Source: a virus (Duplodnaviria > Heunggongvirae > Uroviricota > Caudoviricetes). Taken from it: 64,000 bases of DNA. Below, one piece after another: positions 3,103-60,717 of the stretch (its first letter is position 1; each line of letters starts with the position of its first letter). The DNA is taken from the IMG/VR virus record IMGVR_UViG_3300029543_000199. One strand, written 5' to 3'. A model generated the notes under the pieces. That model saw only the letters and a program-made list of their open reading frames with translations. It was not told the DNA's origin and did not search any database. A program made the position numbers and the translations under genes.

Positions 3103-4125
3103 TTATAAGTCTTCCAGACCTTTCTTTTCTGGAACTACAATGTCTCCGTCTTTGAAATACATTCCAATCTGTTCGTCAGCGTCAATGTCTTTGTAAATTT
3201 GAACCATATCGGATGATTCCCATGCGACAATACTCTGAATAACACCATCAGGAATTCCTGCTTTCGCCAGGCTGGTTGTGAAGTAGTGTCTTAAACTATG
3301 AATGTATGCTGGCTTACCAGACAGTCTGGAGAATGTATTCGACCAGCTATTGATTGTTGATATCTGAATGTGTTCACTTGGATTCTTTGCATCAGGGAAA
3401 AGCCATTCGCTATCTCCGTATTTGTTTAGTCTGTGATTTCTCCACATATCCAAATATGGGTTGAACTTTTTGGCGAGAGTGTAGCAGTTAATCATTTTCC
3501 CGCCGCCCTTACCTTTTGTTTTGATTGGATCGCTTTTATACAAAGCGCCACCGCAAACGAGTTTATCCTCATCGAAATCAGAGATTTTAAATCTGCACAG
3601 TTCGGATTTTCGTCTTCCGCTATACATTGCAAGGGCAAGATAACAGGCTTTCTCATAGTCCTTACGATCTACAAGCTTTGCAAGTAAAGCATCCAATTCT
3701 TCATCCTCCCATACAGTCTTTTCTCTGACTGGTTTGTTTGCAGGATTCTCCACTTTGTTAATGATATTTCTGAAATTTGGAAACTCGTCATCCAAAATAT
3801 TCTCAACGAAGTTACTCATCGATGAGAGAGAAGCTTTAAGTCTTCTGACACGAGCTGGACTATTTTCATTTGAATTTAATAGCCAGTTCTGATATGCTAC
3901 GATATTTCGTTTTGTCCAGTTTACGAAGAACGCATTGTTGTTATGTTGTAAACACCATACAAATGCAATTTGAATATCGTTTTCATATCCTGCGATTGTC
4001 GTTTCGCTTCTTTGCACCGAACGAAGATAATCTTTAAAATCTTCAAGTAGCTGAGTATTTTCTGGATTCACTTGCGCCAGAAGCTCTGGGCTTGTGATTG
4101 AATTCATTTTTGTCTTACGTCCCAT
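3103..4125 (-). CDS. int: Tyrosine recombinase / phage integrase
   Basis: HSLRHYFTTSLAKAG (HxLRH box) and VAWESSDMVQIYKDID (catalytic Tyr region). Confidence 0.8.
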   Translation of the reverse strand: MGRKTKMNSITSPELLAQVNPENTQLLEDFKDYLRSVQRSETTIAGYENDIQIAFVWCLQHNNNAFFVNWTKRNIVAYQNWLLNSNENSPARVRRLKASLSSMSNFVENILDDEFPNFRNIINKVENPANKPVREKTVWEDEELDALLAKLVDRKDYEKACYLALAMYSGRRKSELCRFKISDFDEDKLVCGGALYKSDPIKTKGKGGGKMINCYTLAKKFNPYLDMWRNHRLNKYGDSEWLFPDAKNPSEHIQISTINSWSNTFSRLSGKPAYIHSLRHYFTTSLAKAGIPDGVIQSIVAWESSDMVQIYKDIDADEQIGMYFKDGDIVVPEKKGLEDL

Positions 4126-11480: not shown

Positions 11481-11552
11481 AGTTCCAAGATATATTTTTA
11501 TATCTTACAACAACCACATAACAACCAATTCAAAGAAAAGGAGAAAAGCGAC

Positions 11553-12770: not shown

Positions 12771-12800
12771 TTGGATAACGTCCAAAAAGTAACCCACGAA

Positions 12801-12974
12801 CACAACAGGCAACCACTCAACAGGGTTTCCCCGTGGGTTACGGTTGTAAGTGTGGGAACACAACAGGCAACCACTCAACAGGGTTTCCCCGTGGGTTACG
12901 GTTGTAAGTGTGGGAACACAACAGGCAACCACTCAACAGGGTTTCCCCGTGGGTTACGGTTGTAAGTGTGGGAA
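12801..12974 (+). repeat. Three perfect 58-bp tandem direct repeats (CACAACAGGCAACCACTCAACAGGGTTTCCCCGTGGGTTACGGTTGTAAGTGTGGGAA)
   Basis: Unit starts at 12801, 12859 and 12917. Each contains the palindromic core GTAACCCAC/GTGGGTTAC. Confidence 0.85.
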
Positions 12975-18712: not shown

Positions 18713-19354
18713 ATGGCAAAGAAGAAAAACAACTTTTATGCGGTGAAACAAGGAAAGAATCCAGGGATATATAAAACATGGGATGAGTGCAAGGCGCAGG
18801 TTGAAGGCTTCAGTGGCGCTTTATACAAAGGATTCTCAACCCGCAAAGAGGCTGAGATTTACTTGAGTGGAAATGTCGAACCTGTCATAGAGAGCGATAA
18901 GAGCAAGGAAGCGGACATTACCATTTATGTAGATGGAAGCTTTGATGTGGCAACAAATGTTTACGGATACGGCTGTGTTGTAATTAAAAAGGACGGTTCG
19001 ATTGGACAGTATTATGGGGCAGGAAACAATCCGGAATGTGTGTTGCTGAGGAATGTCGCGGGGGAAATGCTCGCGGCTATGAGTGCTGTAAGATATGCAA
19101 TCAGAAGCGGATGTAAATCTGTAAATATTTGCTATGACTATAGCGGTATTGAAATGTGGGCTATCGGAGCATGGAAAGCAAATAACGATTTGACATTAAA
19201 ATACTCAACGTCAATGAAGGAATGGCAGGATGAGATCGCAATATCGTTTCAAAAAGTAGCTGCTCATACAGGTGAAAAGTACAACGAAATGGTAGACAAG
19301 CTTGCGAAGTATGCGGTTAGTAATTTCTGCAAGGAAAACAAAAATAGGGAATGA
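18713..19354 (+). CDS. rnhA: Ribonuclease HI with an N-terminal RNA-DNA hybrid-binding domain
   Basis: N-terminus FYAVKQGKNPGIYKTWDECKAQVEGFSGALYKGFSTRKEAEIY (caulimovirus-VI / RNase H1 hybrid-binding-domain pattern). Catalytic segments IYVDGS, AGEMLAAMSA, ICYDYSGIE, VAAHTGEKYNEMVDKLAK. Confidence 0.75.
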   Translation: MAKKKNNFYAVKQGKNPGIYKTWDECKAQVEGFSGALYKGFSTRKEAEIYLSGNVEPVIESDKSKEADITIYVDGSFDVATNVYGYGCVVIKKDGSIGQYYGAGNNPECVLLRNVAGEMLAAMSAVRYAIRSGCKSVNICYDYSGIEMWAIGAWKANNDLTLKYSTSMKEWQDEIAISFQKVAAHTGEKYNEMVDKLAKYAVSNFCKENKNRE

Positions 19355-19498: not shown

Positions 19499-19572
19499 GG
19501 ATTGTTAGCTCAGTGGGTTAGAGCAGTCGGCTCATAACCGACCGGTCATCCGTTCGAGTCGGATACGATCCA
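19499..19572 (+). tRNA. tRNA-Met/Ile2 (anticodon CAT), elongator type
   Basis: GGATTGT-TA-GCTC-AGTGGGTTA-GAGC-A-GTCGG-CTCATAA-CCGAC-CGGTC-ATCCG-TTCGAGT-CGGAT-ACGATCC-A. G1-C72 paired. Confidence 0.8.
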
Positions 19573-22660: not shown

Positions 22661-23332
22661 ATGGATTTAAGTAAGAGTTATGAATTTTTCCAGCCAGAAA
22701 AAGATCAGGCAAGAATCCACATTGTAGGATGTGGATCTGTCGGTTCTACAGTAGCAGAGAACCTTGCAAGATGTGGTGTAACAAAGATGACTTTATGGGA
22801 TTTCGATAAAGTTGAACCACATAACATTGTAAATCAGATGTTCGACCAGAACGATGTTGGCAAACTCAAGGTCGAAGCATTAAAAGATATTCTGACAGAT
22901 ATCAATCCAGAAATTTCTGATCAGATTGAAATCAAACCGGAAGGATGGCAGGGAAAGCTGATGTCGGGATATATCTTCCTGTGTGTAGACAGCATTGAAC
23001 TGAGAAGAGAGATTGTTGAAAAACATTTTGACAGTCCATATGTAAAAGCGGTATTTGATTTTAGAACACTGCTTGAAAGCGCACAGCATTATGCAGCTGA
23101 CTGGTCTGATTCCAAAATGAAGGAAGATTTATTGAACTCGATGCAGTTCTCACATGATGAAGCTAAGGATGAGACACCAATATCCGCTTGTGGTGTTACA
23201 CTTGGTGTAGCGACAACAGTAAGATTGATTTCGGCTCTCGGTGTGAACAACTACATCAATTTCGTAAAAGGCGATGGAATCAAGAAAATGATTATTATGG
23301 ACGGGTTCAAATTTGACCTGTTGGCGTTTTAG
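22661..23332 (+). CDS. E1-like (ThiF/MoeB family) adenylyltransferase
   Basis: IHIVGCGSVGSTVAENLARCGVTKMTLWDFDKVEPHNIVNQ: nucleotide-binding GxGxxG plus DxD...NxxRQ-like segment. Confidence 0.7.
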   Translation: MDLSKSYEFFQPEKDQARIHIVGCGSVGSTVAENLARCGVTKMTLWDFDKVEPHNIVNQMFDQNDVGKLKVEALKDILTDINPEISDQIEIKPEGWQGKLMSGYIFLCVDSIELRREIVEKHFDSPYVKAVFDFRTLLESAQHYAADWSDSKMKEDLLNSMQFSHDEAKDETPISACGVTLGVATTVRLISALGVNNYINFVKGDGIKKMIIMDGFKFDLLAF

Positions 23333-23575: not shown

Positions 23576-23847
23576 GAACATGCAATGATATTTATCTCTT
23601 TGAGATAGCTTTCAGCCGTTGGCGGAAGTAGCAACTTGATAGGGAATGCAACCCCGCCGGGATAGAAGGCAACGGAGGATGCGAGAGTTTCATGAAATTC
23701 CAGCAAAGGTTCCGAAGAAGATGAATCCCGGAACAGATAGGTCATAAGTACATGATAATCAATGGATTATACCAAGCAGAGACATGATCAAGATCAGGAT
23801 CATGCAGCACGGATACAACTAAGACATACATTAGATTGCAGTTCTTG
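23576..23847 (+). ncRNA. Retron-like noncoding element R1 (candidate msr-msd) immediately upstream of the reverse transcriptase
   Basis: ORF-free. Flanking inverted repeats GAACATGCAAT (23576-23586) / ATTGCAGTTC (23835-23844). Conserved block TTCAGCCGTTGGCGGAAGTAGCAACTTGATAGG. Member of a 5-copy family. Confidence 0.4.
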
Positions 23848-23859
23848 AAAGGAGAAAAT

Positions 23860-24999
23860 ATGTATTACATAACAGTAAAACAGCCACCATCATACCACCA
23901 GATGACTCTGGAAGAGTTCCTATTTGGATCTGGTTCTGGCGCACAGTTAATAAATGCAAATTTAACGAATACAAGGACGTATGAGGTTGAAGAAGTTAGT
24001 GATCGATTTCTTCAGCTTGTTGATATTGACAAGCTTATTGCAAAACTCGAATGGTTCAACGAAAGAACAGAATATTTAAGAGAGAAGCCACGGCATGAAT
24101 GGTACTATGAGTTCCATATTCCGAAAAAGAGTGGCGGACTTAGAAAGATTGACGCTCCGGAACCGGAACTCAAAGAAGCATTACGCACTCTGAAAAATAT
24201 ATTTGAGGTTGATTTCAAAGCGCTTTATCACACATCAGCATTCGCATATATACAAGGTAGAAGTACGTTAGATCTTTTGAAAAGGCATCAGGCGAATGAA
24301 AGTAAGTGGTTTGAGAAGTTAGACTTATCCAATTTCTTTGGAAGCACAACAATGGAATGGGTGCTGCATATGTTTTCGATGGTGTTCCCATTCTCGGAAG
24401 TAATGAAAGATGACAAAGGAAAAGAAGCACTTGCAAAGGCTCTTGAGCTTGGATTCTTGGATGGGGGACTTCCACAGGGAACTCCGTTGTCTCCAACCAT
24501 TACAAACATTATGATGATTCCGGTTGATTTTGAAGTTGCAAGAACACTCAGAGAATACAATCACCAGAGGTTTGTATATACAAGATATGCTGATGATTTC
24601 CAGATTTCATCTAAATATGGGTTTAGCTTTATGGAAATCCAGAATGTAATCGTATCAATACTGAATGATTTCGGAGCGCCGTTTACAATCAAGAAAGAGA
24701 AGACGAGATATGGATCGTCAGCGGGTCAGAACTGGAATCTTGGATTGATGCTCAACAAAGATAATGAAATCACGATAGGTCACAAAAAGAAAAGACAATT
24801 CCAGGCAATGCTTTCATCGTATGCTATGGATAGAAAGAATGGAATCGCCTGGGATAAAAGTGATATTCAAACGATGGACGGGTATAGAAACTATTACCGG
24901 ATGGTTGAGGGAGAAAAGATTGACGGAATCGTTAAACATCTCAGCGAGAAATTTGGTGTGGATATCGTGAAATCAATTAAAGAAGACCTCACAGCTTAG
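23860..24999 (+). CDS. Reverse transcriptase, retron-type (not DGR, not group II intron)
   Basis: Start at the ATG with RBS GAAAGGAGAAAATATG. Motifs FHIPKKSGGLRKIDAP, FAYIQGRS, LDLSNFFGS, LPQGTPLSP, FVYTRYADDF. Post-YADD NWNLGLMLN resembles the retron VTG segment. No maturase or endonuclease domain. Confidence 0.85.
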   Translation: MYYITVKQPPSYHQMTLEEFLFGSGSGAQLINANLTNTRTYEVEEVSDRFLQLVDIDKLIAKLEWFNERTEYLREKPRHEWYYEFHIPKKSGGLRKIDAPEPELKEALRTLKNIFEVDFKALYHTSAFAYIQGRSTLDLLKRHQANESKWFEKLDLSNFFGSTTMEWVLHMFSMVFPFSEVMKDDKGKEALAKALELGFLDGGLPQGTPLSPTITNIMMIPVDFEVARTLREYNHQRFVYTRYADDFQISSKYGFSFMEIQNVIVSILNDFGAPFTIKKEKTRYGSSAGQNWNLGLMLNKDNEITIGHKKKRQFQAMLSSYAMDRKNGIAWDKSDIQTMDGYRNYYRMVEGEKIDGIVKHLSEKFGVDIVKSIKEDLTA

Positions 25000-33874: not shown

Positions 33875-34588
33875 ATGAGAGTTTTACTGTTATTAAGAGG
33901 AAGCGCAGGATGTGGGAAATCCACATGGATTGAGCAGAACGGATTAAAACAGTATGCATTATCAGCAGATAATATTAGAATGATGTGCTCAAGTCCGCAG
34001 ATGATGCCGGACGGAACACACGCAATCAGTCAGGCAAATGACAATATTGTGTGGAAAACACTGTTCAATATCTTGGAGACAAGAATGAAGAATGGCGAGT
34101 TTACTGTGATTGATGCTACTAACTCTAAAACATCTGAAATGAATAGATATAAGAAGATGTGCGATGAGTACAGATACCGAATCTACTGCGTTGATATGAC
34201 GACTGTTCCAATCGAGGTAACAAAGGAAAGAAATCGAGGGCGACAGGAACTGAAAAGAGTGCCGGAAGAAGTAATCGATAAGATGTATGCAAGGTTCGAG
34301 ACACAGAAAATTCCGTCAGGCATTAAAGTTATTCAGCCAGATGAGTTAAACGCTGTTTTGGTGAAGTTAAATGATGAGATATCTCCATACTGCTTTTCTT
34401 TGATGTACTTATTTCTTCTAAGCTCAAGAATCCACTCTCCGACGGAATCCGCACCAGCAGCTACCTCTCCCGGTTCTCTAAATACTGTATTCTTTACCTC
34501 TACCGTATTGAAAGTACCGTCGTTATCGAGGATAACAGCTCTCAGGCTTCCACCAAACTCAACTCTTCCTTCAAGATTGAAGGCATGA
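33875..34588 (+). CDS. Polynucleotide kinase-like P-loop kinase. The 3' end is uncertain: the ORF runs 255 nt into the convergent phosphatase gene.
   Basis: Start at the internal ATG with RBS GAGAGGTGAAAACATG. Walker A LLLRGSAGCGKST; T4-Pnk-like kinase fold for ~170 residues. The last ~65 codons are low-complexity and look like antisense read-through. Confidence 0.55.
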   Translation: MRVLLLLRGSAGCGKSTWIEQNGLKQYALSADNIRMMCSSPQMMPDGTHAISQANDNIVWKTLFNILETRMKNGEFTVIDATNSKTSEMNRYKKMCDEYRYRIYCVDMTTVPIEVTKERNRGRQELKRVPEEVIDKMYARFETQKIPSGIKVIQPDELNAVLVKLNDEISPYCFSLMYLFLLSSRIHSPTESAPAATSPGSLNTVFFTSTVLKVPSLSRITALRLPPNSTLPSRLKA

Positions 34589-35187
34589 TTGTTGACTTTT
34601 ACCGGAAGTCCTTTTGTATTTCTATGACCATGAATCTGATAACAATTTTCATCCATCTTATCCTCGAATGTTGCATCTACCTGCTCAGCATCGTTGTATC
34701 TTCCAACACCCTTAATCATCTGACTGGTAGATACCATTGTGAGATTATCTGGAATCATACTTAACCCAGCATGTGTGGCAAGGACTGTCTTACCTCTGAA
34801 TTCGTAATAAGCGCACTGACCCATCCGTCTGTAAAGCTTCCTGATTGACTTCTTATCAATACCGGCTGCTTCGATTTCTGCTTTTGTATGGAATTCAAAC
34901 TCTTTAGATGCCGTCACTTTATCATGCGCCCAGTCCCATAACCACCGCTCATGATTACCCTCAAGAAGCAGCACATTCGGCTTATCATATGTTGAAAGCA
35001 AGAACTTCAAGACATCAGCGTTTTCAATTCCTCGATCTGTGTAATCACCACAGAAGATGTAGAATTCATCATCTTTAAAACCGCCATTCGCTTCAAAATA
35101 TGTATTCAATGCTGTATTACATCCATGAATATCTCCAATATGATGGATACGTTTGTACTGATCCAGATTGAATTTCTTCATAAACAC
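34333..35187 (-). CDS. Lambda-phosphatase-like (PPP family) metallophosphatase. Only minus-strand gene in the 53-kb plus-strand array.
   Basis: GDIHGC, GDYTDRG, GNHERW motifs. Confidence 0.75.
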   Translation of the reverse strand: MFMKKFNLDQYKRIHHIGDIHGCNTALNTYFEANGGFKDDEFYIFCGDYTDRGIENADVLKFLLSTYDKPNVLLLEGNHERWLWDWAHDKVTASKEFEFHTKAEIEAAGIDKKSIRKLYRRMGQCAYYEFRGKTVLATHAGLSMIPDNLTMVSTSQMIKGVGRYNDAEQVDATFEDKMDENCYQIHGHRNTKGLPVKVNNHAFNLEGRVEFGGSLRAVILDNDGTFNTVEVKNTVFREPGEVAAGADSVGEWILELRRNKYIKEKQYGDISSFNFTKTAFNSSG

Positions 35188-36088
35188 AGCGTTTTATGAC
35201 AAAATCTGGGACGAGCAGACAACAAAGGCAAGAGGATTATACATCAATATTCCGAAACAGAAGATTGTTGCCAGAGCTTATGATAAGTTCTTTAACATCA
35301 ATGAAAGACCAGAGACAGAATTAGACAAGCTGCAGGATAAGTTGGCATTCCCGGTAAGAGCATACGTCAAAGAGAATGGATATCTTGGAATCGTATCCAA
35401 TAATCCAGAAACAGGAAAGCTGTTTGTGACTACTAAATCAAACCCGGAAGGGTCATATGCTGAATGGTTTGCTGAAGCACTTCATACACAGCTTGGTGAC
35501 GATACTCTTGATAAGATCAATGCTTATTGTAAAGAGCACGATGTATCATTTGTATTTGAAAATGTAGACATGGAAAGAGACCCTCATATCATTAAGTATT
35601 CGGGAAGCAGAGTATTTCTGCTGGATATAGTATCGAATGATATGAAATTCCAGAAGCTTAGTTTTGAGGAGATGTGTACTGTTGCCGAATCTCTCAAAAT
35701 TCCTCATAAAGAATTAGGATACGAGATTGAAACATGGCAGGATTTCTTTGATTGGTACAACAGGGTAATGGATGAAGATTACAAGTACGGCGGAAGACGC
35801 ATCGAAGGATTCGTTATTGAAGATTCAAACGGGTACATGGTTAAGTTGAAACTGGCGTACTACAATTTCTGGAAATTCATGAGATCAATTTCGCATGAAG
35901 CTATTAAGAAAGGATATATTGACCCGAAAAGAACAGCTGCGTTGGTAACACCTCTTGCAAATCAGTTCTATGCATGGGTTAAAACACTTCATGATGTAGA
36001 GGATTTAGATAGTGTTCCGAGAAATATCTGCACATTGCGAGATATGTTTTACGAATCAGACTCCGGTAAGAAATTCAAAGATGAATAG
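35168..36088 (+). CDS. RNA-ligase-like nucleotidyltransferase (Rnl2 / Pnkp-ligase-like)
   Basis: Motif I YVKENGYLG (KxNG), IV EGFVIE, V MVKLK. Divergently overlaps the phosphatase start by 20 nt. Confidence 0.5.
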   Translation: MNFFINTAFYDKIWDEQTTKARGLYINIPKQKIVARAYDKFFNINERPETELDKLQDKLAFPVRAYVKENGYLGIVSNNPETGKLFVTTKSNPEGSYAEWFAEALHTQLGDDTLDKINAYCKEHDVSFVFENVDMERDPHIIKYSGSRVFLLDIVSNDMKFQKLSFEEMCTVAESLKIPHKELGYEIETWQDFFDWYNRVMDEDYKYGGRRIEGFVIEDSNGYMVKLKLAYYNFWKFMRSISHEAIKKGYIDPKRTAALVTPLANQFYAWVKTLHDVEDLDSVPRNICTLRDMFYESDSGKKFKDE

Positions 36089-40273: not shown

Positions 40274-40346
40274 CACGAAACATAGCGAGCTTGCAGTAAT
40301 GCAACTCGCTATTTATATATACAAAACAAACGAAAGGAGTAAAGAA

Positions 40347-42938
40347 ATGAATGGATTAAGTAGTAGTGAGGTTCTGCGAAGCAGGGAAATGCATGGCAGT
40401 AATAAACTTCCAGAACCGAAGATGAAGAAGTGGTATGACTTTGCAAAAGAGGCATTGAGTGAAAAAATCACAATGATTTTGATTGCCATTGCTGTTCTGC
40501 AGTTATTCCTCGGATTCATGGGAGTGATGGAACTTTCTGATCCAATCATGATTCTTGTGGTACTTGCAATCGTGACAGTGATTGCTGTAAAGACTGGACT
40601 TGGTGTTCAGAAGTCAGCAGCAGAGTTGCGAGCAAAGACGTCGGTCAGGTACTGCGATGTAATTCGTGATGGGAAAGTTCAGACAATCAACAAGGATGAG
40701 TTGGTTGTTGGAGATTTAGTATGTGTAGGTATGGGACAGGAGATTTTCGCTGATGGTTATATTGTAGATGGAAAAATCTCAGTGAATAATGCAGCAATCA
40801 ATGGAGAGACAAAAGAGTGTAAGAAGACACCGATTCAAGGATACATACACGCAAAAACTACATCAACATCTGCATACACAAACCCGAATTGCTTGTTTGC
40901 AGGAACTACGGTTATGTCAGGCGAGGGAAAGATGATTGTCACAGATGTAGGCGTAAATACAGTCAACGGGGATACGATGGTTAAGATGCAGACATTGGAA
41001 TCTCCGAAAACAGCTCTTGATATCGCACTCGATAATTTAAGTGACTTTATTTCAAAATGGGGAACCGTCGCAGCTGTGGTAACATTTGCAGTTTTGACAA
41101 TGACAGGCATCATGAGTGTTGGGTTCAGCAACTATTTCGGAGGAAATATTTTAGATGTGATCCAGAAAATCGCACAGAATTTCTCTGTCGCATTAACAAT
41201 TATTGTAGCAGCAGTTCCGGAGGGGCTTCCACTGATTGTAAAGCTCGTAACAAAGCAAAATGTTCGGACGATGGAGACGTTCAATATTCTGGCGAAGAAT
41301 CCAGGCAAAATTCCAGAGCTTGCTTATGTGGATATTATTTGTACGGATAAGACTGGTACGCTTACAACCGGAGTCATGACCCCAAAGAAAATCATCGATG
41401 CATTTGTAGATGAAGTTGATGAATCGTCTGAATTATGGAAAGCTATGGTCAATAATATCTGTATCAATAATAGCGCAGTATTCGACGGCAACGGAGAAAT
41501 TACTGGAGGCAATTCCATTGACCGTGCGGTATTAACTCTGACGGATTCTGAAGAGTATGGAAAAATCGTGAATGACTTACAGGTCAAAGCGAAACAGGTC
41601 TTCAATAGTTCTAATAAATATTCCGCAGTAAGTTGTTCAAACGAAGTTACCTATTATAAAGGTGCTCCAGAAAAACTCATTGATCACTGTACGACAGCTC
41701 TCGGAGATGGAATTCAGACATTTACAGACAGCGATAAGATTAGACTGCTTGAGAACATTAAAGAGATGACAACGAAGTCAATGAGATGTATTGCTCTTAC
41801 GCAATCAAAGGAAGAACTTGTTGAGAATGAGCTTCCAAATAACATGACATTGTTAGGAATTATCGGAGTTGTTGACCCGGTAAGAGAGGAAGTTCCAAAT
41901 GCAGTGGCTATGGCTCATAAAGCAGGTATTCAGGTAATCGAGATTACCGGAGATTGCCTTGAGACAGCAAAAGCCGTGGCAGAAGAATGTGGAATTTATA
42001 TGGCTGGAGATCTGGCTATTACAAATGATGACTTTGAAGCGATGTCTGATGACGAAGTAAAAAGTATCATTCCAAAACTGAGAGTTATTTCAAGATGTTC
42101 ACCTAATACAAAACTGAGACTGGTAACTCTTGCTCAGGAAATTGGAAAGTCTGTTGCGATGACCGGAGACGGTGTGAATGATTCACCGGCATTAAAAAGA
42201 GCAGATGTAGGATTCGGTATGCAGGGCGGGTCTGATGTAGCAAAAGAGGCATCTGATATTGTTCTGACTGATGATAACTTTGCAAGTGTTGTAAAAGCTG
42301 TGGAACTTGGAAGAACATTCATGCACAACATCATGATGTTTCTTGAGTTCCAGTTACCAATCAACATCGCATTGCTTATCTTGAGTGTGATTTATCCTAT
42401 GGTTGCAACCGGTGCTCTGCTGGCTTCGGTACAAATTCTGATTGTGAATATCATTATGGATTCACTTAACTCGCTGTCTTTTGGAGGTGAGCCGCCGAAG
42501 GAAGAATATATGTCTGAGCGACCTATTAAAAAGGGTTCTGGATTATTTATTCGAGGAGCTAAGAAACGTATAGCAATCAGTACAGCTACGTTTATCGCCT
42601 TATACGGAATCATCACATTCAGTCCAGTATCAAATATGTTCGCAACTGATGTGGAGGCTATGACGGCGAGATTTGCGCTCTTATGTTTCATGGCTGTATT
42701 CAACGGATTCAATATCCGTACAGAACATATGAATCTATTTAAAGGTATAGGAAAGAATAAGCTGTTCTCATATATTGCAGTTGGAATCTGTGCGATGACA
42801 GTAATTCTGTGTGATTTCGCAGGAACGTTGATTAAGGCAACAGCGCTTGACTTAAATCATTGGCTTGTAATTATCGCACTTGCGTTTATGGTTATCCCAG
42901 TCGATCTTATAAGAAAGGCTGTAGATAATAGAAAATAA
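40347..42938 (+). CDS. P-type cation-transporting ATPase (P2-type, Ca2+-ATPase-like)
   Basis: Start at the ATG with RBS AAAGGAGTAAAGAAATG. DKTGTLT phosphorylation motif; GDGVNDSPALKRADVG hinge; N-terminal cation-ATPase domain; about 10 TM segments. Confidence 0.85.
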   Translation: MNGLSSSEVLRSREMHGSNKLPEPKMKKWYDFAKEALSEKITMILIAIAVLQLFLGFMGVMELSDPIMILVVLAIVTVIAVKTGLGVQKSAAELRAKTSVRYCDVIRDGKVQTINKDELVVGDLVCVGMGQEIFADGYIVDGKISVNNAAINGETKECKKTPIQGYIHAKTTSTSAYTNPNCLFAGTTVMSGEGKMIVTDVGVNTVNGDTMVKMQTLESPKTALDIALDNLSDFISKWGTVAAVVTFAVLTMTGIMSVGFSNYFGGNILDVIQKIAQNFSVALTIIVAAVPEGLPLIVKLVTKQNVRTMETFNILAKNPGKIPELAYVDIICTDKTGTLTTGVMTPKKIIDAFVDEVDESSELWKAMVNNICINNSAVFDGNGEITGGNSIDRAVLTLTDSEEYGKIVNDLQVKAKQVFNSSNKYSAVSCSNEVTYYKGAPEKLIDHCTTALGDGIQTFTDSDKIRLLENIKEMTTKSMRCIALTQSKEELVENELPNNMTLLGIIGVVDPVREEVPNAVAMAHKAGIQVIEITGDCLETAKAVAEECGIYMAGDLAITNDDFEAMSDDEVKSIIPKLRVISRCSPNTKLRLVTLAQEIGKSVAMTGDGVNDSPALKRADVGFGMQGGSDVAKEASDIVLTDDNFASVVKAVELGRTFMHNIMMFLEFQLPINIALLILSVIYPMVATGALLASVQILIVNIIMDSLNSLSFGGEPPKEEYMSERPIKKGSGLFIRGAKKRIAISTATFIALYGIITFSPVSNMFATDVEAMTARFALLCFMAVFNGFNIRTEHMNLFKGIGKNKLFSYIAVGICAMTVILCDFAGTLIKATALDLNHWLVIIALAFMVIPVDLIRKAVDNRK

Positions 42939-42951
42939 GGAGGTTTGTAAC

Positions 42952-43530
42952 ATGTCAATTAGTTTAGTGAAAGGTCAGAAGATTGATCTTACAAAAGGAA
43001 ATGCTGGGCTGAAGAGGGTTGTGTTTGCTCTTGGCTGGGACACAAACAGATATGACGGAGACGAAGAATTCGATCTTGATGTGTCGGCGTTCTTCACTGA
43101 TGAGTCTGGCAAGGTCACAGGAGAGCAGGATTTCGTATTCTACGGACAGCCACAGCATCCGAGCGGAGCACTTACATACTCAGGAGATAACAGAACAGGA
43201 GAAGGAAGCGGCGATGATGAAACCATGACGGTCGAGTTAGAAAAGATTCCGGCAAATATCTCCAAAATCAGTTTCGCTGCAACAATTTACGATGCAGAAA
43301 ACAGGCTGCAAAACTTTGGTATGGTTGATAATTCATACATCCGTGCATACGATGCAGATACAAATGAGGAGCTTTTCAGATACGATTTGAATGAGGACTT
43401 CTCACTGGAAACAGGCGTAGTTGCCGGAGAGCTGTACAGCAGAAATGGAGAATGGAAATTCAATGCTGTTGGATCTGGATTTACTGGAGGATTAGCAGCA
43501 GTCGGTAGAAACTTTGGACTGAATTTATAA
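42952..43530 (+). CDS. TerD-domain protein (paralog 1)
   Basis: SGDNRTGEGSGDDE Ca-binding signature. Confidence 0.8.
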   Translation: MSISLVKGQKIDLTKGNAGLKRVVFALGWDTNRYDGDEEFDLDVSAFFTDESGKVTGEQDFVFYGQPQHPSGALTYSGDNRTGEGSGDDETMTVELEKIPANISKISFAATIYDAENRLQNFGMVDNSYIRAYDADTNEELFRYDLNEDFSLETGVVAGELYSRNGEWKFNAVGSGFTGGLAAVGRNFGLNL

Positions 43531-43547
43531 GAAAGAAGGGTTGGCAT

Positions 43548-44120
43548 ATGTCAGTAAGTTTAGTAAAGGGGCAGAAAATCAATCTGTCAAAAGAAGTAGA
43601 AGGGCTTAAAAAGGTGGTTGTAGGTCTCGGCTGGGATGCAGCAAAACAGGGTGTGTTCGGTCATAAGCCAAACATTGACTGTGATGCGTCTGCAATTATC
43701 CTGGGTAAAGGTAATAAGTATAAGGGTGTTGTATATTACGGAGACAGATCAGCTGAAGACGGATGTGTATATCATCATGGAGACAACCTTACCGGAGACG
43801 GAGATGGTGATGATGAACAGATTACAGTAAATCTTGAAAAGATGCCATCCGATGTCGAAAAGATTGTATTCGTTGTTAATATCTATGCTTGTACATCCAG
43901 AAAACAGGACTTTGGTCTGATTAAGAACGCATTTATTAGACTTGTGGATGACGCAAGTAGAAAGGAAATTTGCAAATATAATCTCTCTGAAAATTATGCA
44001 GGAAAAACTGCTATGGTATTTGCAGAAGTGTATAAGAAAGACGGAGAGTGGAAGTTCAATGCAATCGGACAGGGAACAAACGACACAAGTATCAGTGAAT
44101 TGGCAAACAGATATAAATAA
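43548..44120 (+). CDS. TerD-domain protein (paralog 2)
   Basis: HGDNLTGDGDGDDE. Confidence 0.8.
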   Translation: MSVSLVKGQKINLSKEVEGLKKVVVGLGWDAAKQGVFGHKPNIDCDASAIILGKGNKYKGVVYYGDRSAEDGCVYHHGDNLTGDGDGDDEQITVNLEKMPSDVEKIVFVVNIYACTSRKQDFGLIKNAFIRLVDDASRKEICKYNLSENYAGKTAMVFAEVYKKDGEWKFNAIGQGTNDTSISELANRYK

Positions 44121-44131
44121 GGAGGATTCAC

Positions 44132-44713
44132 ATGTCAGTATTATTAAGTAAAGGGCAGAGGGTAGACCTTACGAAAGGTCGCCCTTCTTTAAAGAATATA
44201 TTTGTAGGTCTTGGGTGGGACATCAATCACTACGACGGAGAATCTGATTTTGACCTAGATGCATCCGTGTTTATGACAAAAGAAAATGGTAAAGTCGGAT
44301 CGGATGGAGACTTTGTATTCTATGGAAATCTGGCACACAATTCAAAGAGCGTAGTTCACATGGGCGACAATCGAACAGGCGAAGGAGAGGGAGATGATGA
44401 GGTAATCAACATCAAACTTGACAAGGTTCCGGATGATTACGAATCAATCGCTGTAACTGTAACAATTTACGATGCAGAAAGCAGACTACAGAATTTTGGA
44501 ATGGTAGAAAACGCATACGTAAGAGTTGTTGACGCAGACACAGGAGAAGAACTGATGAGATTTGACCTGAGCGAAGACTTCTCTACAGAAACAGCCATCG
44601 TTGTTGCAGAAATTTACCGACACAACGGTGAATGGAAATTTAAAGCAGTTGGTAGCGGATATAACGGAGGTCTTGCAGCTCTTTGTAGACAGTACGGAAT
44701 TGACGCGGAGTAG
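44132..44713 (+). CDS. TerD-domain protein (paralog 3)
   Basis: MGDNRTGEGEGDDE. Confidence 0.8.
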   Translation: MSVLLSKGQRVDLTKGRPSLKNIFVGLGWDINHYDGESDFDLDASVFMTKENGKVGSDGDFVFYGNLAHNSKSVVHMGDNRTGEGEGDDEVINIKLDKVPDDYESIAVTVTIYDAESRLQNFGMVENAYVRVVDADTGEELMRFDLSEDFSTETAIVVAEIYRHNGEWKFKAVGSGYNGGLAALCRQYGIDAE

Positions 44714-44722
44714 GAGGATATC

Positions 44723-45469
44723 ATGACTAACTTTATGTTTACTGTGATTGTAGTAATTGTGCTTGCTGTGATTATACTTTTCGGAACTGTCTTTGGAAAA
44801 CAGCTCCGTGTGAAAATGAAAGGCAGAACTGATGAAGTAATGCGCCAGGACGCTCAGACTCCAGAAGGAGCGAGAGATTACTACAACGCCGCAATTAGAG
44901 AAAAAGAAGATTTTTACAATAGGGCATCTGCAAGTTTTGCTGAAATTTCCGGCAAAAGATCTGCTGCAGAAAATGATCTGCATAAGACACGGAAGGAAAT
45001 TATGAAAGTTACAAACGATATGAATGCTTGTATTGACAGCGATCGAGAAGATGAGGCAATGCAGTATGCACGGAAGAAATCAACGCTCGAAAGCAAAATC
45101 AATGTTTTAAAAGATACTGTGGATGAGATGAAAGAGGTTGAAGCTCATCAGAAAGAGATTATGCAGCAAGCAGCTGAGGAACTGCAGAAGCTAAAAGAAG
45201 AAAAAGAGCAGGTAGTTTTCCAGATGGAAGCCGATAGTCAGATTATTGAACTTCATCAGAGCATGGATTCTTTAAGCATGAACAACGAGAGTGATAGGAT
45301 GCTTGAGAGAGTTCGTGAGGGCGCAAGAAAGACGAGAGAACGCGCCGATGGTAGTCGAATCGCATATGATTCAAGCGCACAGGCGGCTGATCGAAGACTT
45401 GAGGCATCTGAGAGAGAAAGAAATGCTCGTCAGATTCTCGAAGAGGCAAGGAGACAGCGAGGAAAGTAA
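44723..45469 (+). CDS. Membrane-anchored coiled-coil protein (PspA/TelA-like?)
   Basis: N-terminal TM FTVIVVIVLAVIILFG, then ~200 residues of charged coiled coil. Confidence 0.4.
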   Translation: MTNFMFTVIVVIVLAVIILFGTVFGKQLRVKMKGRTDEVMRQDAQTPEGARDYYNAAIREKEDFYNRASASFAEISGKRSAAENDLHKTRKEIMKVTNDMNACIDSDREDEAMQYARKKSTLESKINVLKDTVDEMKEVEAHQKEIMQQAAEELQKLKEEKEQVVFQMEADSQIIELHQSMDSLSMNNESDRMLERVREGARKTRERADGSRIAYDSSAQAADRRLEASERERNARQILEEARRQRGK

Positions 45470-46711: not shown

Positions 46712-47039
46712 GGGGCTGTAAAGGTTTCGACAGGGGTATGAAAGTTATGAATTCGCTAGAGTGATGACTTAATCATCAACCATTAAACACAAACGCAAAC
46801 AGACAGATGTTAGCAGTAGCCTAAGTTGCTACACCAAAATGTATTGAGATATTGCTGGTAGATACTGAGGTTCAAAAACAAGCATAATTTGTATACGGTT
46901 CTCTGTAAATGAACACCTGTATTGGTTGAGATAGTTAAGAACAGAGTGGTGGATAGAAATCAGTACATGATTCCAAAACAGCGTAAAGATTCATAGTGAG
47001 TAATATTTTTGGACAGGGGTTCGACTCCCCTCAGCTCCA
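46712..47039 (+). ncRNA. ssrA: tmRNA (ssrA-like transfer-messenger RNA)
   Basis: 5' GGGGCTGTAAAGGTTTCGACAGGGG and 3' GGACAGGGGTTCGACTCCCCTCAGCTCCA match the tRNA-like domain of bacterial tmRNA (acceptor GGGGCTG/CAGCTCC, T-arm GGGG-TTCGACT-CCCC). Internal reading frame GCA AAC AGA CAG ATG TTA GCA GTA GCC TAA (ANRQMLAVA-stop). Confidence 0.7.
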
Positions 47040-47655: not shown

Positions 47656-47892
47656 ATGTGTAAAGTAATGTTAAATTCTATTGACAAAGTTAAGGAGTTC
47701 GTAAATAAAACATCCAGAGTAGACGGAGATGTGTTCCTGCAATCTGGAAGATATATCATTGATGCTAAATCAATTATGGGGATTTTCAGCTTAGACCTGA
47801 CAAAGCCGTTGAGTTTAAGCTTTGAGAAATGCTCTGATGAAGAAGTTCAGAATTATATGAGTAGCATCCATGAATTCATTATGGAGGAGTAA
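47656..47892 (+). CDS. HPr/Crh-like phosphocarrier-fold protein lacking the active-site His15
   Basis: GDVFLQSGRYIIDAKSIMGIFSLDL closely parallels Crh/HPr SDVFLEKDGKKVNAKSIMGLMSLAV, including the Ser46-equivalent in KSIMG. No His in the N-terminal region (LNSIDKV where GIHARPA would be). Confidence 0.55.
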   Translation: MCKVMLNSIDKVKEFVNKTSRVDGDVFLQSGRYIIDAKSIMGIFSLDLTKPLSLSFEKCSDEEVQNYMSSIHEFIMEE

Positions 47893-48511
47893 GATGGATT
47901 TGCAAACAATTAAAAATATGGTCTCGTCGGAGGAATACAATTTCCTTAGAAATAACGATCACCTCGGAAACAGAATCATCCTTATCGGACTTGGCGGAAG
48001 TCATGCATATGGAACAAATAACGAGACATCTGACCTTGATGTAAGAGGATGCGCTCTGAATAGTAAGGAAGAAATTCTTACAAATCAACATTACGAGCAG
48101 TTTGTTGATGAGAAAACGGATACTACAGTGTATGCGTTCAATAAGTTAATAAGTTTGCTTTGTAATTGCAATCCAAATACGATTGAGATGCTTGGGTTAA
48201 AGCCTGAGCATTATTTATTTCTGTCTCCTGTAGGACAGGAATTATTACATAATAAGGATTTGTTCCTTTCAAAGAAAGCGGCACAGGCTTTCGGTGGATA
48301 TGCTACGGCTCAGCTTAGAAGACTTGATAATAAAGCAGCAAGGCTTGTCGGTCAAGCGCAGCGGGAGCAACACATATTAAACAGTATACGTAACGTGGGT
48401 GCAGACTTCAAAGAAAGATATTTTGAATATCCGGATGACGCGATCAAGTTGTATATCGATAAGTCGGATAGGGAAGATATGATTCCGAAATTTATATGGA
48501 TGTGCATTTAA
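47870..48511 (+). CDS. Pol-beta-superfamily nucleotidyltransferase
   Basis: GLGGSHAYGTNNETSDLDVRG (GS-x9-13-DhD). Confidence 0.6.
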   Translation: MNSLWRSKMDLQTIKNMVSSEEYNFLRNNDHLGNRIILIGLGGSHAYGTNNETSDLDVRGCALNSKEEILTNQHYEQFVDEKTDTTVYAFNKLISLLCNCNPNTIEMLGLKPEHYLFLSPVGQELLHNKDLFLSKKAAQAFGGYATAQLRRLDNKAARLVGQAQREQHILNSIRNVGADFKERYFEYPDDAIKLYIDKSDREDMIPKFIWMCI

Positions 48512-48933: not shown

Positions 48934-49749
48934 TTGGGTGAAATTGTAAATATTGCAGATGCTAAAAATAAGGTAATTGATTTACAGGCACTACAGAGAA
49001 GTAAGGTTAAGTCCGCAGCCGGTTTAATTGCTCCTGCGAAAGAGGAAACCCATTGCGAATTAGCACCGGAACATGCTGCGGAGCCAATTAAAAGTCTGGA
49101 TGATATCTATGCAATTTCTGAATTTCTCATTTCTAATAAAAGATACAGAGATAACATGCTATTCATAGTCGGCATCAACTTTGGACTTCGAGTCAGCGAT
49201 TTAAGGATGCTGAGATTCTCAAATCTTATCAATGATAATTTCACATTTCGTGATAACTTCCCAGTATTTGAAAAGAAAACAAGAAATACAAGGAAAAGAA
49301 AAAAGAATAGATATATCACAATCAATACCGCCGTTATAGAGGCGGTAACTTTATATCTTGAGAATACGCCAGGCGTTACGTTGAGTGATTATCTATTTCG
49401 TAGCGAATCCAATAGGGGGAAATCAACGAATCAGCCATTATCAAAACAGTCAATAGACCGGATTTTAAAAGGAATTGCGGTCGATTTGCACCTGAACATA
49501 AGGATTGCTACACATAGTTTACGGAAAACATTTTGCTATCACCAGATGGTGATGTCGAACAATGATAGCAGAAAGCTTTTGCTTTTGCAGAAGATGCTGA
49601 ATCATTCTTCGCCCGCACAGACGCTGGATTACATCGGAATCACTTCCGAGGAAATCGAAGCTGCGTATAAGGAATTGAATCTTGGAGGAAGAACAAGGAA
49701 TTATCTGATGGACAGTAACATAGTAGAAGTCGAGAATTTTGCGGGGTAG
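48934..49749 (+). CDS. Tyrosine recombinase (second integrase-family gene), TTG start
   Basis: IATHSLRKTFCYHQM (HxLRK) and LNHSSPAQTLDYIGI (Tyr nucleophile); RBS TTTAGGAGGTGTAAGCTTTG. Confidence 0.7.
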   Translation: MGEIVNIADAKNKVIDLQALQRSKVKSAAGLIAPAKEETHCELAPEHAAEPIKSLDDIYAISEFLISNKRYRDNMLFIVGINFGLRVSDLRMLRFSNLINDNFTFRDNFPVFEKKTRNTRKRKKNRYITINTAVIEAVTLYLENTPGVTLSDYLFRSESNRGKSTNQPLSKQSIDRILKGIAVDLHLNIRIATHSLRKTFCYHQMVMSNNDSRKLLLLQKMLNHSSPAQTLDYIGITSEEIEAAYKELNLGGRTRNYLMDSNIVEVENFAG

Positions 49750-50065: not shown

Positions 50066-50379
50066 AAAAGTGGTTTTATATCGTTATGTTGTCTCTGATG
50101 CTTGTATTTGGGATAATCGGATGCACATCAAAGGATGATGAAACACAGGGTGGTAAGCAAGATGAGGCTACACCAATACATATTACGATTCCAAAAAGAA
50201 GACGTGGTGATTTCACAGCAGAAATCGATACCGTGTCTGTCACGGATGAGAACGGAGAGATATTGTTTGAATGTGACACAGAAGGAGGAGTTACTATCAA
50301 ACTAAATGATAGTGTTCTTACAGTTGTCGTTCCAGAACGAAATGACAGCTGTTTTGATAATGGAAAATTAGCAGAATAA
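50062..50379 (+). CDS. Putative lipoprotein
   Basis: Signal peptide MKKWFYIVMLSLMLVFGIIGC with lipobox-like IIGC. Confidence 0.55.
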   Translation: MKKWFYIVMLSLMLVFGIIGCTSKDDETQGGKQDEATPIHITIPKRRRGDFTAEIDTVSVTDENGEILFECDTEGGVTIKLNDSVLTVVVPERNDSCFDNGKLAE

Positions 50380-50392
50380 GGAGGAATAGGAA

Positions 50393-50914
50393 ATGAAAAA
50401 TGTACTTATTGTAGTAGACGTTCAGAATGATTTTGTTGATGGTGCTCTTGGAAGCAAAGAAGCGCAAGCAATCATTCCAGCTGTGAAAGCAAAGATTGAG
50501 AAATATGATAAATACGGTAGAGAGATTCTTTTCACAAGAGACTCACACGATGGGGATTATCTGTACACTTCTGAAGGAAGAAAACTGCCTATTAAACACT
50601 GCATTATGGGGACTCGCGGACATAGAATTGTAGATGGTCTTGAAACACATAATAGCAGGCATATTGATAAGCAGACATTCGGATACACTGGATGGGATGA
50701 GGTGTTGGATATGCTTGGAAATCCGGATAGCATTGAGATGATTGGTCTTGATACCGATATTTGTGTTGTTGCAAATGCATTGATTATTAAAACATTAAGA
50801 CCAGATATTGAAATCACAGTGGATGCAGGATGCTGTGCAGGATCGACACCAGAAAAGCACAAAGCAGCACTAGAAGTAATGAAGAGTTGTCAGATTGATG
50901 TGATTGGAGAATAA
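50393..50914 (+). CDS. Isochorismatase-family hydrolase, nicotinamidase (PncA)-like
   Basis: VLIVVDVQNDFVDGALG; LFTRDSH; catalytic Cys in IGLDTDICVVANAL. Confidence 0.6.
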   Translation: MKNVLIVVDVQNDFVDGALGSKEAQAIIPAVKAKIEKYDKYGREILFTRDSHDGDYLYTSEGRKLPIKHCIMGTRGHRIVDGLETHNSRHIDKQTFGYTGWDEVLDMLGNPDSIEMIGLDTDICVVANALIIKTLRPDIEITVDAGCCAGSTPEKHKAALEVMKSCQIDVIGE

Positions 50915-50920
50915 AAAGAA

Positions 50921-51748: not shown

Positions 51749-51750
51749 TA

Positions 51751-59760: not shown

Positions 59761-60717
59761 ATGTATAATGAAGAAGTGAAACATCGATTTATGAGAGAAA
59801 CGGTTGCTTCGACACCGTACAAATTGAAATTATGTGAGTCAATATTCAATAGCACAGAGCAATTTGAAGAAGGATGGGGAGCAGATTTATGCACGAGATC
59901 TGCAGAAGAGCTTCAACCGATGGTAAATCAGCTTGCAGGATTTAGAGCAAGAAGCAAGTGGTCAAAACTCATTCTATTAAAAGAGTATGTAAAATGGTGC
60001 ATAGAGATGGGGATTGACGGAGCAAGTCCAGGAATGCTAGAGATTAAGACTGTTGGGCTTGATAAAGTAAAACAGCAAACGATAGCAAATCCGAAGCATC
60101 TGCAGAATTATTTGAATGCAATATGCGAACCGGCGGAGAAACAGGCGACTGATAATATATATCGATGTTATTATTGGTTGGCATACGCTGGAATGGATGA
60201 GGAGGACATCTTAAATGTAAAATGCTCAGATGTTGATTTTAAAACTCTCACGGTAAAATATGATAAGAAATATACGGTTGTTCCTATCTATCCAGAAGGA
60301 TTGGAGGCTTTTCATAATTGTGTTGAATTAGATAGCTTTGCATTCCTACATCCAAATTATTCACATGAGATACGAAAGGAAAGAGCAGCCGGTGATACAT
60401 TGATTCGAGGAATAAGATCCGCCTTAACAATAAAGGCATTGAGAGTTGAGCTATCGAGAAGATCGAAGAATAAAAGCGACAACACTCCGCTGAAATTGAG
60501 TTACTTTAGAGTCTGGATTTCTGGAGTTTTCTACAGAATGTACGAGCAAGAAACCATTGGAGTACCGCCAGATTTTAATGCAATCGTATCTCAGCAGATG
60601 GAAGGGAAGACATACAAGCTGGATAGCGGAAGAAACACAACAGAAGCGAAACATAGACAGCTTGTAAGAGATTATGAAGAAGACTATGAAAGATGGAAAC
60701 TTGCATGGTTTTTATAA
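59761..60717 (+). CDS. Hypothetical protein (possible integrase/recombinase-related DNA-binding protein)
   Basis: 318-aa ORF, RBS TTAGGAGGAGCAGATG; no clear catalytic motif. Confidence 0.45.
   Translation: MYNEEVKHRFMRETVASTPYKLKLCESIFNSTEQFEEGWGADLCTRSAEELQPMVNQLAGFRARSKWSKLILLKEYVKWCIEMGIDGASPGMLEIKTVGLDKVKQQTIANPKHLQNYLNAICEPAEKQATDNIYRCYYWLAYAGMDEEDILNVKCSDVDFKTLTVKYDKKYTVVPIYPEGLEAFHNCVELDSFAFLHPNYSHEIRKERAAGDTLIRGIRSALTIKALRVELSRRSKNKSDNTPLKLSYFRVWISGVFYRMYEQETIGVPPDFNAIVSQQMEGKTYKLDSGRNTTEAKHRQLVRDYEEDYERWKLAWFL

Follow-up and report, generated by a model that had tools for sequence, protein, structure and literature searches.

The 64-kb window analysed here (the whole stretch of 64,000 nucleotides, from IMG/VR virus record IMGVR_UViG_3300029543_000199, to whose positions all coordinates refer) contains three open reading frames (ORFs) between positions 33875 and 36088 that together encode the parts of an RNA-repair enzyme. 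The first is on the plus strand, has possible starts at 33815, 33839 and 33875, ends at 34588, and encodes the P-loop GSAGCGKS; the second is on the minus strand (34333..35187, 284 aa) and encodes the motifs GDIHG, GDYTDRG and GNHE; and the third, again on the plus strand, runs from a TTG at 35168 to 36088 (306 aa). An earlier, sequence-only reading of this DNA had described these ORFs as a kinase, a binuclear metallophosphatase and an RNA ligase, and both the ORFs themselves, all present in the ORF list, and the identity of the three modules (AAA_33, Metallophos and RNA_lig_T4_1, respectively) bear this description out. The same reading had drawn attention to the phosphatase as a lone minus-strand gene, and it is indeed the only domain-bearing minus-strand ORF between ~11.4 and 64 kb. 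The evidence set out below leaves us highly confident that the three ORFs are in fact one RNA-repair gene with a naturally recurrent internal inversion.

When positions 34357 to 35185 are replaced in silico by their reverse complement (hereafter "flipped"), the locus reads as an uninterrupted ORF of 2214 nt and 737 codons that spans 33875-36088 and has no internal stop; an upstream ATG at 33839, which is the called start in some relatives, would make the product 749 aa. The junctions of the flipped segment lie at domain boundaries (codons 158-161 and codons 438-440), and the GC skew changes sign exactly at the segment, being +0.24 in the left flank, -0.23 over 34357-35185 and +0.18 in the right flank. 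In the orientation found in the window, the kinase ORF closes with 77 codons of low-complexity sequence antisense to the phosphatase ORF, and the two frames share an antisense overlap of 256 nt. Direct reading of the sequence revealed neither an ATG nor a Shine-Dalgarno-like sequence for the ligase ORF, for which gene callers take the TTG at 35168, and no Shine-Dalgarno-like sequence upstream of the ATG of the phosphatase ORF; a search for a promoter or terminator belonging to the minus-strand ORF itself returned 13 promoter-like sites against 11.6 expected by chance. The phosphatase ORF ends in "...FNFTKTAFNSSG*" and the ligase ORF begins with "..NTAFYDKIWDE", so that the same TAF is written at both junctions. 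Because the kinase ORF carries an antisense tail, the ligase ORF lacks both an ATG and a Shine-Dalgarno sequence, and TAF recurs at the two junctions, we conclude that these are not free-standing genes. The 77-codon tail is probably a meaningless extension. We did consider whether it might be a selected alternative C-terminus, and rejected this idea because the hypothetical tails that an equivalent flip would create in homologues without the repeat are 11-94 codons long, which makes a length of 77 unremarkable.

Domains and family of the flipped protein

Pfam analysis of the flipped protein placed AAA_33 at residues 4-142 (E 2e-20), Metallophos at residues 173-352 (E 1e-13) and RNA_lig_T4_1 (PF09511) at residues 451-663, the last covering model positions 1-227 of 227 (E 1e-39). 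Among solved structures, the kinase part is matched best by the Clostridium thermocellum Pnkp kinase domain (4gp7/4jst, E 4e-7, query residues 4-162). The 60 structure matches listed include neither a dNMP kinase nor an adenylate kinase, which answers a doubt that the sequence-only reading had itself raised about the kinase. The solved structures closest to the phosphatase part are PP1/lambda-type phosphatases, with whose motifs GDIHG (178-182), GDYTDRG (207-213) and GNHE (237-240) align. For the ligase part the closest solved structure is a fungal tRNA ligase (9qw7), whose KANG, EGFVI and KYK align with KENGY, EGFVIE and VKLKL; the nucleotidyltransferase domain is complete and contains motifs I (the lysine of KxxG), IV (EGFV) and V (KxK). 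The forward protein is thus predicted to be a trifunctional RNA end-healing and end-sealing enzyme with 5'-OH kinase, 2',3'-cyclic/3' phosphatase and ATP-dependent ligase activities.

The likeness to bacterial Pnkp that had been proposed for these modules holds for the kinase and the phosphatase and fails for the ligase, which is not of the Pnkp type. Against TIGR04075, the profile of bacterial Pnkp, the flipped protein scores 75 bits versus a cut-off of 750, and model positions 10-324 of 851 are aligned, which are the kinase and phosphatase parts only. In four related loci (L001, L006, L009 and L049), the genes called up to 10 kb to the left and right gave no Hen1-like Pfam match, and Hen1 is likewise not among the Pfam results listed for the 48 ORFs of the window (the top 25 of 50 families plus ORFs scanned individually). 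As judged by these profile comparisons, the forward protein is not a member of bacterial Pnkp proper, and its ligase is of the T4 Rnl1/Trl1 type. The gene is by the same measure a member of the phrog_8238 family ("RNA ligase"), a kinase-phosphatase-Rnl1 fusion, the profile of which aligns end to end with the near-identical homologue P0003 (residues 13-740 on profile positions 1-732 of 737, E 5.1e-226).

Both orientations in nature and recurrence of the inversion

In a search of a collection of 5.8 billion proteins, the flipped ORF was 99% identical over 100% of its length to P0001-P0011, which are 749 or 737 aa long, and shared 87% identity with P0012 (a cluster of 1098 members), with ~4800 further homologues, most of those listed being ~740 aa long. 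The 158-kb ENA contig that encodes P0003 is collinear with the window, and 34348-35194 alone aligns in reverse. The description of the locus as a system split into three genes therefore does not stand, since near-identical relatives carry one contiguous gene of 737/749 aa and the pieces in the window are without translation signals.

The orientation found in the window is itself widespread. The kinase-plus-tail ORF, which is exclusive to the inverted state, matches P0121 (98% identity, 33 cluster members) and P0122 (86%, 31 members), and the inverted form is present on ENA contig k141_78767 (53 kb), an ENA scaffold of 11 kb, Logan contig ERR10890004_3712, OLQY01000247.1, three IMG/VR genomes (UViGs) of 115-118 kb, ENA scaffold_115 (127.5 kb, 6921 nt of it identical to the window), ENA contig_1193 (367 kb), and a 499-kb contig of the isolate genome Ruminococcus sp. 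AF12-5 (GCA_003461655.1). Among the loci compared, the same segment is inverted in L005-L008, L040-42, L047, L049 and L050 and forward in L001-4, L009-15, L051-59 and L090-99. The exact 306-aa ligase-only product of the window occurs on 6 contigs and a sister sequence on 38, and inverted lineages differ from one another by up to 20% in nucleotide sequence. An exact search of IMG/VR for the left junction returned nothing; the inverted IMG/VR genomes, which bear single-nucleotide polymorphisms, were found by protein search. When loci were collected without regard to orientation (6 IMG/VR genomes of the clade and 15 long contigs reached via flanking proteins), 4 were inverted and none was disrupted in any other way.

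The carrier is a very common temperate phage of human-gut Ruminococcus-like Firmicutes, an assignment made because the locus lies on long bacterial contigs and an integrase gene stands beside a tRNA gene. The prophage is seen in thousands of human-gut data sets; the index of the collection lists one of its flanking proteins under 3251 blocks. A megablast search with the locus gave no match in GenBank phages, where only distant protein-level homologues were found.

To compare alleles irrespective of orientation, inverted copies were turned back to sense before trees were built. Orientation is scattered over the gene tree, with a Fitch minimum of 7 changes for the whole gene (97 of 100 bootstraps) and of 6 (range 5-7) when just the 50 or 100 nt beside each junction are used. 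Several sisters in the tree have opposite orientations: WIN/L047 (inverted; WIN being the window) is 99.2% identical to L001 (forward), L042 is 99.3% identical to L014, L041/L049 are 99.1% identical to L015, and between the inverted L050 and the forward L013 there are 7 differences in 2214 nt. Overall, forward and inverted sister alleles from different samples show 7-17 differences per 2214 nt. These comparisons indicate that the same flip arose independently at least 6 times. We rejected a single ancient inversion subsequently spread by recombination, as the trees of the 50-100 nt adjacent to the junctions still require 5-7 changes. Reversibility is compatible with the tree and is not required by it, for a model without reversion also gives 7 events (left and middle parts of the gene).

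The gene is also a mosaic. Synonymous divergence (dS) per pair differs several-fold among parts 1-480, 483-1311 and 1311-2211 in comparisons involving L008, L009, L014, L015 and L040; between L008 and L015, for example, dS is 0.38, 0.66 and 0.08. This pattern suggests that lineages have exchanged homologous DNA, the boundaries falling close to the two conserved sites. Recombination is thus real, yet it does not explain the orientation pattern.

The inversion is confined to one pair of sites. Alignment of 296 kb from 29 related loci to window positions 22.7-47.7 kb reveals no inversions elsewhere, although the same region contains 278 other inverted-repeat pairs of at least 9 nt spaced 50-2000 nt apart. 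Among 27 homologues at 66% identity or less, the best repeat at the equivalent sites is 7 nt or shorter and none of the 27 is inverted, and all 111 of the 195 cultured-phage matches whose alignment takes in 80% or more of the query at a single location (in SPbeta-like, Staphylococcus Sep1-like, Streptomyces and Lactobacillus phages) are contiguous. Because the orientation-blind loci include 4 inverted alleles and none otherwise disrupted, inversion outpaces all ordinary loss-of-function mutations; were inactivation alone selected, nonsense and frameshift alleles should outnumber a single inversion at a 9-nt repeat.

These findings also settle what had been proposed for the minus-strand phosphatase, namely a local inversion or an independent acquisition. 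The former is right, for there is an exact flip of 829 nt; the latter is not, since near-identical relatives are contiguous. The synteny comparison that had been suggested shows related phages to be collinear with the window apart from this exact flip between 9-nt inverted cores. What the earlier reading missed was the main point, that the inversion is a recurrent, site-specific polymorphism.

The junction repeats and the nature of the flip

A repeat finder detected an imperfect inverted repeat at 34348-34366 / 35176-35194 (19 nt, 84% complementary) that lies exactly on both junctions. Overall the repeat is 19-21 nt long and imperfect, with a perfect 9-nt core (AAACGCTGT / ACAGCGTTT), and it has only two matches in 64 kb versus 0.01 expected. 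The cores are identical in all copies from the clade and lie 838 nt apart from start to start; when junctions of the window and its relatives are placed side by side, the exchange is seen to be exact and to fall within the 9-nt core. In the forward gene the right site (AACTTCACCAAAACAGCGTTTTATGA) is the longest invariant run of the gene, at 26 nt, in a set of 11 clade sequences with differences of up to 20%, and the left site is a run of 31 nt with a single polymorphism in the same 11 sequences. Counting both sites, 15 of the 18 codons for invariant amino acids are identical, versus a background of 37% (hypergeometric P=5e-5). The repeat sites therefore show an excess of synonymous conservation, a sign of function. 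The right site resembles what we take to be the 12-2-12 architecture of Hin/Gin-type sites, a resemblance that we do not use as evidence. Further copies of the core or extended site were sought in the window, especially near recombinase genes, and the only one found was a degenerate third copy at 35003-35023, within the segment, which departs from the consensus at 4 of 19 nt and shows 81% complementarity with the left arm; no rearrangement using this copy was seen.

Three tyrosine recombinase genes of the window might supply an invertase (Table 1), and no serine invertase was found among the 48 window ORFs, some 60 kb of the phage genome lying beyond the window. Our leading candidate for the enzyme that performs the flip is the 271-aa protein, which is present at 94-100% identity in all 6 of the IMG/VR genomes that bear the inverted repeat. 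The 340-aa recombinase is probably the lysogeny integrase, and it and the 318-aa protein are alternative candidates. A perfect 15-nt inverted repeat (CCATTATCAAAACAG, 49435-49449 / 50349-50363) was considered as a native site and rejected: the pair is not conserved in six relatives and no inversion occurs there. This repeat extends over the 3' portion of the gene for the 271-aa recombinase and over the ORF that follows, and is, by estimate, unexpected by chance in 5 kb.

A model that would account for these observations is as follows. In the forward orientation (ON) the gene would be read through to give the 737-aa enzyme. In the inverted orientation, that of the window (OFF), the frame would be broken at both junctions, leaving the kinase domain with a nonsense tail of 77 aa, the phosphatase in antisense without translation signals, and the ligase without a proper start. 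The flip would be catalysed by a site-specific recombinase and be reversible, and at the level of the population it could act as a bet-hedging switch for RNA repair or counter-defence, for example if the enzyme is costly or is sensed by the host. On balance we lean towards an intragenic inverton that is driven by a recombinase, is probably reversible and switches a Pnkp-like RNA-repair enzyme on and off. A more specific proposal, that this is a dedicated, recombinase-driven, reversible switch by which a temperate gut phage takes the catalytic core of its RNA-repair enzyme out of frame through inversion, so that lysogen or phage populations would always hold repair-ON and repair-OFF (kinase-only) subpopulations, we put forward tentatively, and regard as somewhat improbable as it stands.

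Contig ends provide a hint that both orientations co-exist. Four contigs end within ~120 nt of a junction (L005, L007, L044 and L048): L044 ends exactly at the end of the left core, L005 ends 6 nt before the right core, L007 ends 21 nt after the right core, and L048, a k127 contig, starts 118 nt before the right core. Because De Bruijn assemblers stop where both continuations occur, these breaks suggest that both orientations are present within samples. Moreover, the ORF is intact after flipping in 6 of 7 inverted lineages, and the ratio of nonsynonymous to synonymous divergence (dN/dS) of inverted lineages lies at 0.03-0.12 in each of the three parts (kinase, inverted, ligase), as it does in forward-forward pairs. 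On these two grounds the inverted state appears to be short-lived on an evolutionary scale, through either reversion or loss of the lineage.

Several observations weigh against a recombinase-driven switch. A known recombinase site was not recognised in the repeat, and the perfect core is just 9 nt long; the second point is not in itself an objection, because a 9-bp core suffices for the FimB/FimE switch. No recombinase gene is adjacent to the sites, the nearest being 13.7 kb away, and no similar site was found near the recombinase genes of the window. The repeat is confined to one clade of the family, which would make the switch young. The inverted form is in the minority, accounting for 1 of the 15 long contigs in the unbiased, flank-based sample. 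Mixture within samples is surmised from contig breaks, and the isolate assembly (AF12-5) is unbroken through the inverted locus, so that switching is not fast. The inverted lineage L006/L007 carries a nonsense codon at position 409 and is thus decaying. Finally, other rearrangements occur at the same sites: L089 (Logan ERR14039590_3262, ~3474-3500) has lost exactly the segment, leaving the junction AAACGCTGT|TTTTATGAC, and L046 (Logan ERR13958090_27027, ~10217-10221) has a 17-kb deletion joined at AAACG. The rearrangements in L089 and L046 fit a fragile or recombinogenic site as well as they fit a recombinase.

With respect to these alleles, the flanks of L089 are 92.6% (upstream) and 100% (downstream) identical to L009, so that a lineage boundary coincides with the site. 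In L046 the kinase part is fused, at the AAACG of the left core (window 34348-34352), to a PRTase gene downstream (window 51481); this contig is rearranged elsewhere too, and may be chimeric or reflect a genuine deletion. In another deletion allele, P0123, the fusion partner is a PspA-like gene (window 44723-45469). At least two distant homologues on long contigs, P0183 and P0190, have a frameshift directly after "DDEFYIF" in the phosphatase domain, which hints at a slippery run or a recurrent sequencing error.

The rival explanation that survives best is a hot-spot that is not programmed. On this explanation, which we regard as a serious possibility albeit an unlikely one, a chance inverted repeat in one clade gives rise to recurrent spontaneous inversions, by replication template switching or by annealing via the phage ERF/PD-(D/E)XK module, and each inversion is a dead-end null allele of an accessory gene that is tolerated for a while in the prophage. 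The shortness of the core, the distance to any recombinase gene, the clade-specificity of the repeat and the minority status of the inverted form speak for it, as do the microhomology-type deletions at the same sites and the nonsense codon of L006; the window encodes an ERF protein (61795-62487) and a PD-(D/E)XK nuclease (62913-63722), and the young look of all inverted lineages fits dead-ends too. Such a hot-spot is, however, hard to reconcile with at least 6 independent events at one pair of repeats when the 278 other pairs in 296 kb show none and the unbiased loci contain no nonsense or frameshift allele. The rate it needs would far exceed what is usually reported for spontaneous events at such short repeats. 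The conserved synonymous sites in both repeats also speak against it, as do the contig breaks at the junctions, which suggest within-sample mixtures.

Three free-standing genes, forming a split Pnkp-like system with a phosphatase that was acquired independently or is expressed from its own promoter, are very improbable. Split Pnkp1/Rnl/Hen1 systems do exist in bacteria (PMC4411300), and gene callers do report three ORFs in inverted genomes; against this, the flip restores a single ORF 99% identical to contiguous relatives in which the pieces are fused, the phosphatase lies antisense within an otherwise all-plus operon, and there are in addition the overlap, the nonsense tail, the missing translation signals of ligase and phosphatase and the chance-level promoter counts. 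An assembly or library artefact, in the form of a chimeric join or a segment mis-oriented in one contig, we dismiss as equally improbable, although balanced inversions at microhomologies can arise in vitro and some related Logan contigs (L046, L089) look chimeric, because the same two junctions recur in more than 10 assemblies (MEGAHIT, scaffold, Logan, IMG/VR) from different samples, assemblers and k-mer sizes, as well as in the isolate genome, and because a 9-nt repeat is far below any k used.

Related systems and genomic context

Short inverted repeats that bound a segment of 0.3-3 kb and are acted on by a site-specific recombinase are also found in fimS of E. coli, whose 9-bp repeats are used by the tyrosine recombinases FimB and FimE, and in the G and C segments of phages Mu and P1, which are inverted by Gin and Cin. 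Those elements switch a promoter or the ends of tail-fibre genes and have a recombinase gene adjacent, whereas here a catalytic domain is switched and the adjacent genes include no recombinase.

Intragenic phase-variable inversions have been described recently in gut bacteria and have so far only been hinted at in viruses. The bacterial examples include invertons of a "premature stop" class, such as BT3786 of Bacteroides thetaiotaomicron (Chanin et al., 10.1101/2023.03.11.532203). There, as here, the segment lies wholly inside one ORF, is bounded by short inverted repeats and on flipping yields separately called ORFs, both orientations are present in gut metagenomes, and the invertase is likewise not identified. 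Unlike the invertons presented there, ours is in a phage or prophage, covers a whole catalytic domain with ends at domain boundaries, and has an RNA-repair or counter-defence gene as its target; the evidence here comes from comparison of assemblies, whereas theirs comes from reads or PCR. A study of putative viral invertons (TPMM; PMC13501310, 2026) lists 16 candidates, with a Microviridae capsid gene as its worked example, and shares with our case segments flanked by inverted repeats in coding sequences of gut viral contigs and an inversion that splits one coding sequence into two. The words "ligase" and "kinase" are absent from its main text, and it presents no analysis of phylogenetic recurrence. 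In a literature search that was itself incomplete, we came across no inverton described for an RNA-repair or counter-defence gene of a phage, and neither of these two papers was seen to deal with an RNA-repair gene.

As regards the enzyme, C. thermocellum Pnkp of the Pnkp-Hen1 system (PMC3675462, PMC3902929) has the same order of kinase, binuclear metallophosphatase and ligase on one polypeptide and the same metal-binding motifs; it differs from the phage gene, which has a PF09511 ligase, no Hen1 neighbour among the called genes, and a product of 737 aa (the TIGR04075 profile has 851 positions). In Pnkp1-Rnl-Hen1 (PMC4411300) the kinase-phosphatase and the ligase are on separate polypeptides, as they seem at first sight to be in the window; that split is a stable organisation of working genes, whereas the one seen here is a by-product of the inversion. 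T4 Pnkp and Rnl1, which reverse the damage done by the anticodon nuclease PrrC (PMC3592404, PMC3025547), are likewise a phage means of healing and sealing breaks whose ends carry a 2',3'-cyclic phosphate and a 5'-OH and include an Rnl1-family ligase, and by this analogy are likely to be the functional counterpart. Unlike the gene in the window, the T4 system has a phosphatase of the DxDxT acylphosphatase (HAD) type, consists of two proteins and has no DNA switch. Other members of phrog_8238, in SPbeta-like Bacillus and Staphylococcus Sep1-like phages, have the same three domains at 46% identity or less and are contiguous and without the inverted repeat.

The gene affected encodes a complete RNA break-repair enzyme, of the kind that phages use against anticodon nucleases and other RNA-cutting defences. 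If there is indeed a dedicated reversible switch, it would be the first case of an inverton found to govern counter-defence in a virus, and it would imply that there are times when carrying an active tRNA/mRNA repair enzyme becomes a liability, for example through sensing by the host or through interference with the phage's own MazF-type toxin. If programmed, it would suggest that counter-defence genes can be bet-hedged and would offer a natural ON/OFF system for testing phage RNA repair in gut Firmicutes. As a practical matter, annotation pipelines report the inverted state as a kinase, a "hypothetical protein" and an RNA ligase, which is easily misread as a split system.

The window encodes further functions connected with RNA damage and repair (Table 1), with which we group the NAD-salvage block described below. 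This gene set fits a role of the enzyme in conflicts that involve RNA cleavage; it says nothing direct about why the enzyme should be switched.

Table 1 Positions in the window of the RNA-repair gene, its junction repeats, the recombinase genes and RNA-related features
Feature	Position	Strand	Details
5' part of the RNA-repair gene: polynucleotide-kinase domain, residues 1-160	33875..34356	+	P-loop GSAGCGKS, residues 9-16
Left inverted repeat TTAAACGCTGTTTTGGTGAAG, in the kinase-phosphatase linker (codons 158-161)	34346..34366		Perfect 9-nt core AAACGCTGT at 34348-34356
Invertible 829-nt segment, here inverted (predicted OFF); residues 161-437 coded on the minus strand	34357..35185	-	Metallophosphatase domain (GDIHG, GDYTDRG, GNHE, THAG, HGHRN) and linker to the ligase
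Antisense tail of the kinase frame in the inverted state	34357..34588	+	77 codons and stop; codons offset from those of the phosphatase
Right inverted repeat CTTCATAAACACAGCGTTTTA, just upstream of the ligase domain (codons 438-440)	35176..35196		Core ACAGCGTTT at 35186-35194
3' part of the RNA-repair gene: Rnl1/Trl1-type RNA ligase domain, residues 438-737 and stop	35186..36088	+	KENGY 499-503, EGFVIE 644-649, VKLKL 656-660
Candidate invertase, 271-aa tyrosine recombinase	48934..49749	+	Catalytic domain only; no N-terminal arm-binding domain detected
Second tyrosine recombinase, 340 aa, XerC/D-like, phrog_1 integrase	3103..4125	-	Adjoins tRNA-Tyr (4157-4240) and an HU-like gene (2619-3077)
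Third recombinase-like ORF, 318 aa, phrog_5830 integrase	59761..60717	+	MrpR_N_CB core-binding domain; directly after the PemK/MazF toxin gene
PemK/MazF-type toxin	59323-59751		
RlaP "RNA repair pathway" nucleotidyltransferase	47870-48511		
RNase H1	18713-19354		
915-aa ORF with RdRP (PF05183) match	6599-9346	-	
tmRNA	46712-47039		Tag peptide ANRQMLAVA
tRNA-Tyr-GTA	4157-4240		
tRNA-Met-CAT	19499-19572		
tRNA-Gln-TTG	60808-60880		

Other features of the window were also noted. An RVT_1 reverse transcriptase gene (23836-24999) possibly belongs to a diversity-generating retroelement, and a ThiF-like gene lies at 22661-23332. A P-type cation ATPase gene followed by three TerD genes occupies 40299-44713, and an NAD-salvage block (50393-54626) comprises isochorismatase, PRTase, NAMPT/NAPRTase and NAD synthase genes. 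A perfect tandem repeat at 12798-12977 (58-nt unit, 3.1 copies, 100% matches) falls within the 1.2 kb that separate a sigma/HTH-like ORF (11469-12728) from an ORF at 13930-14679.

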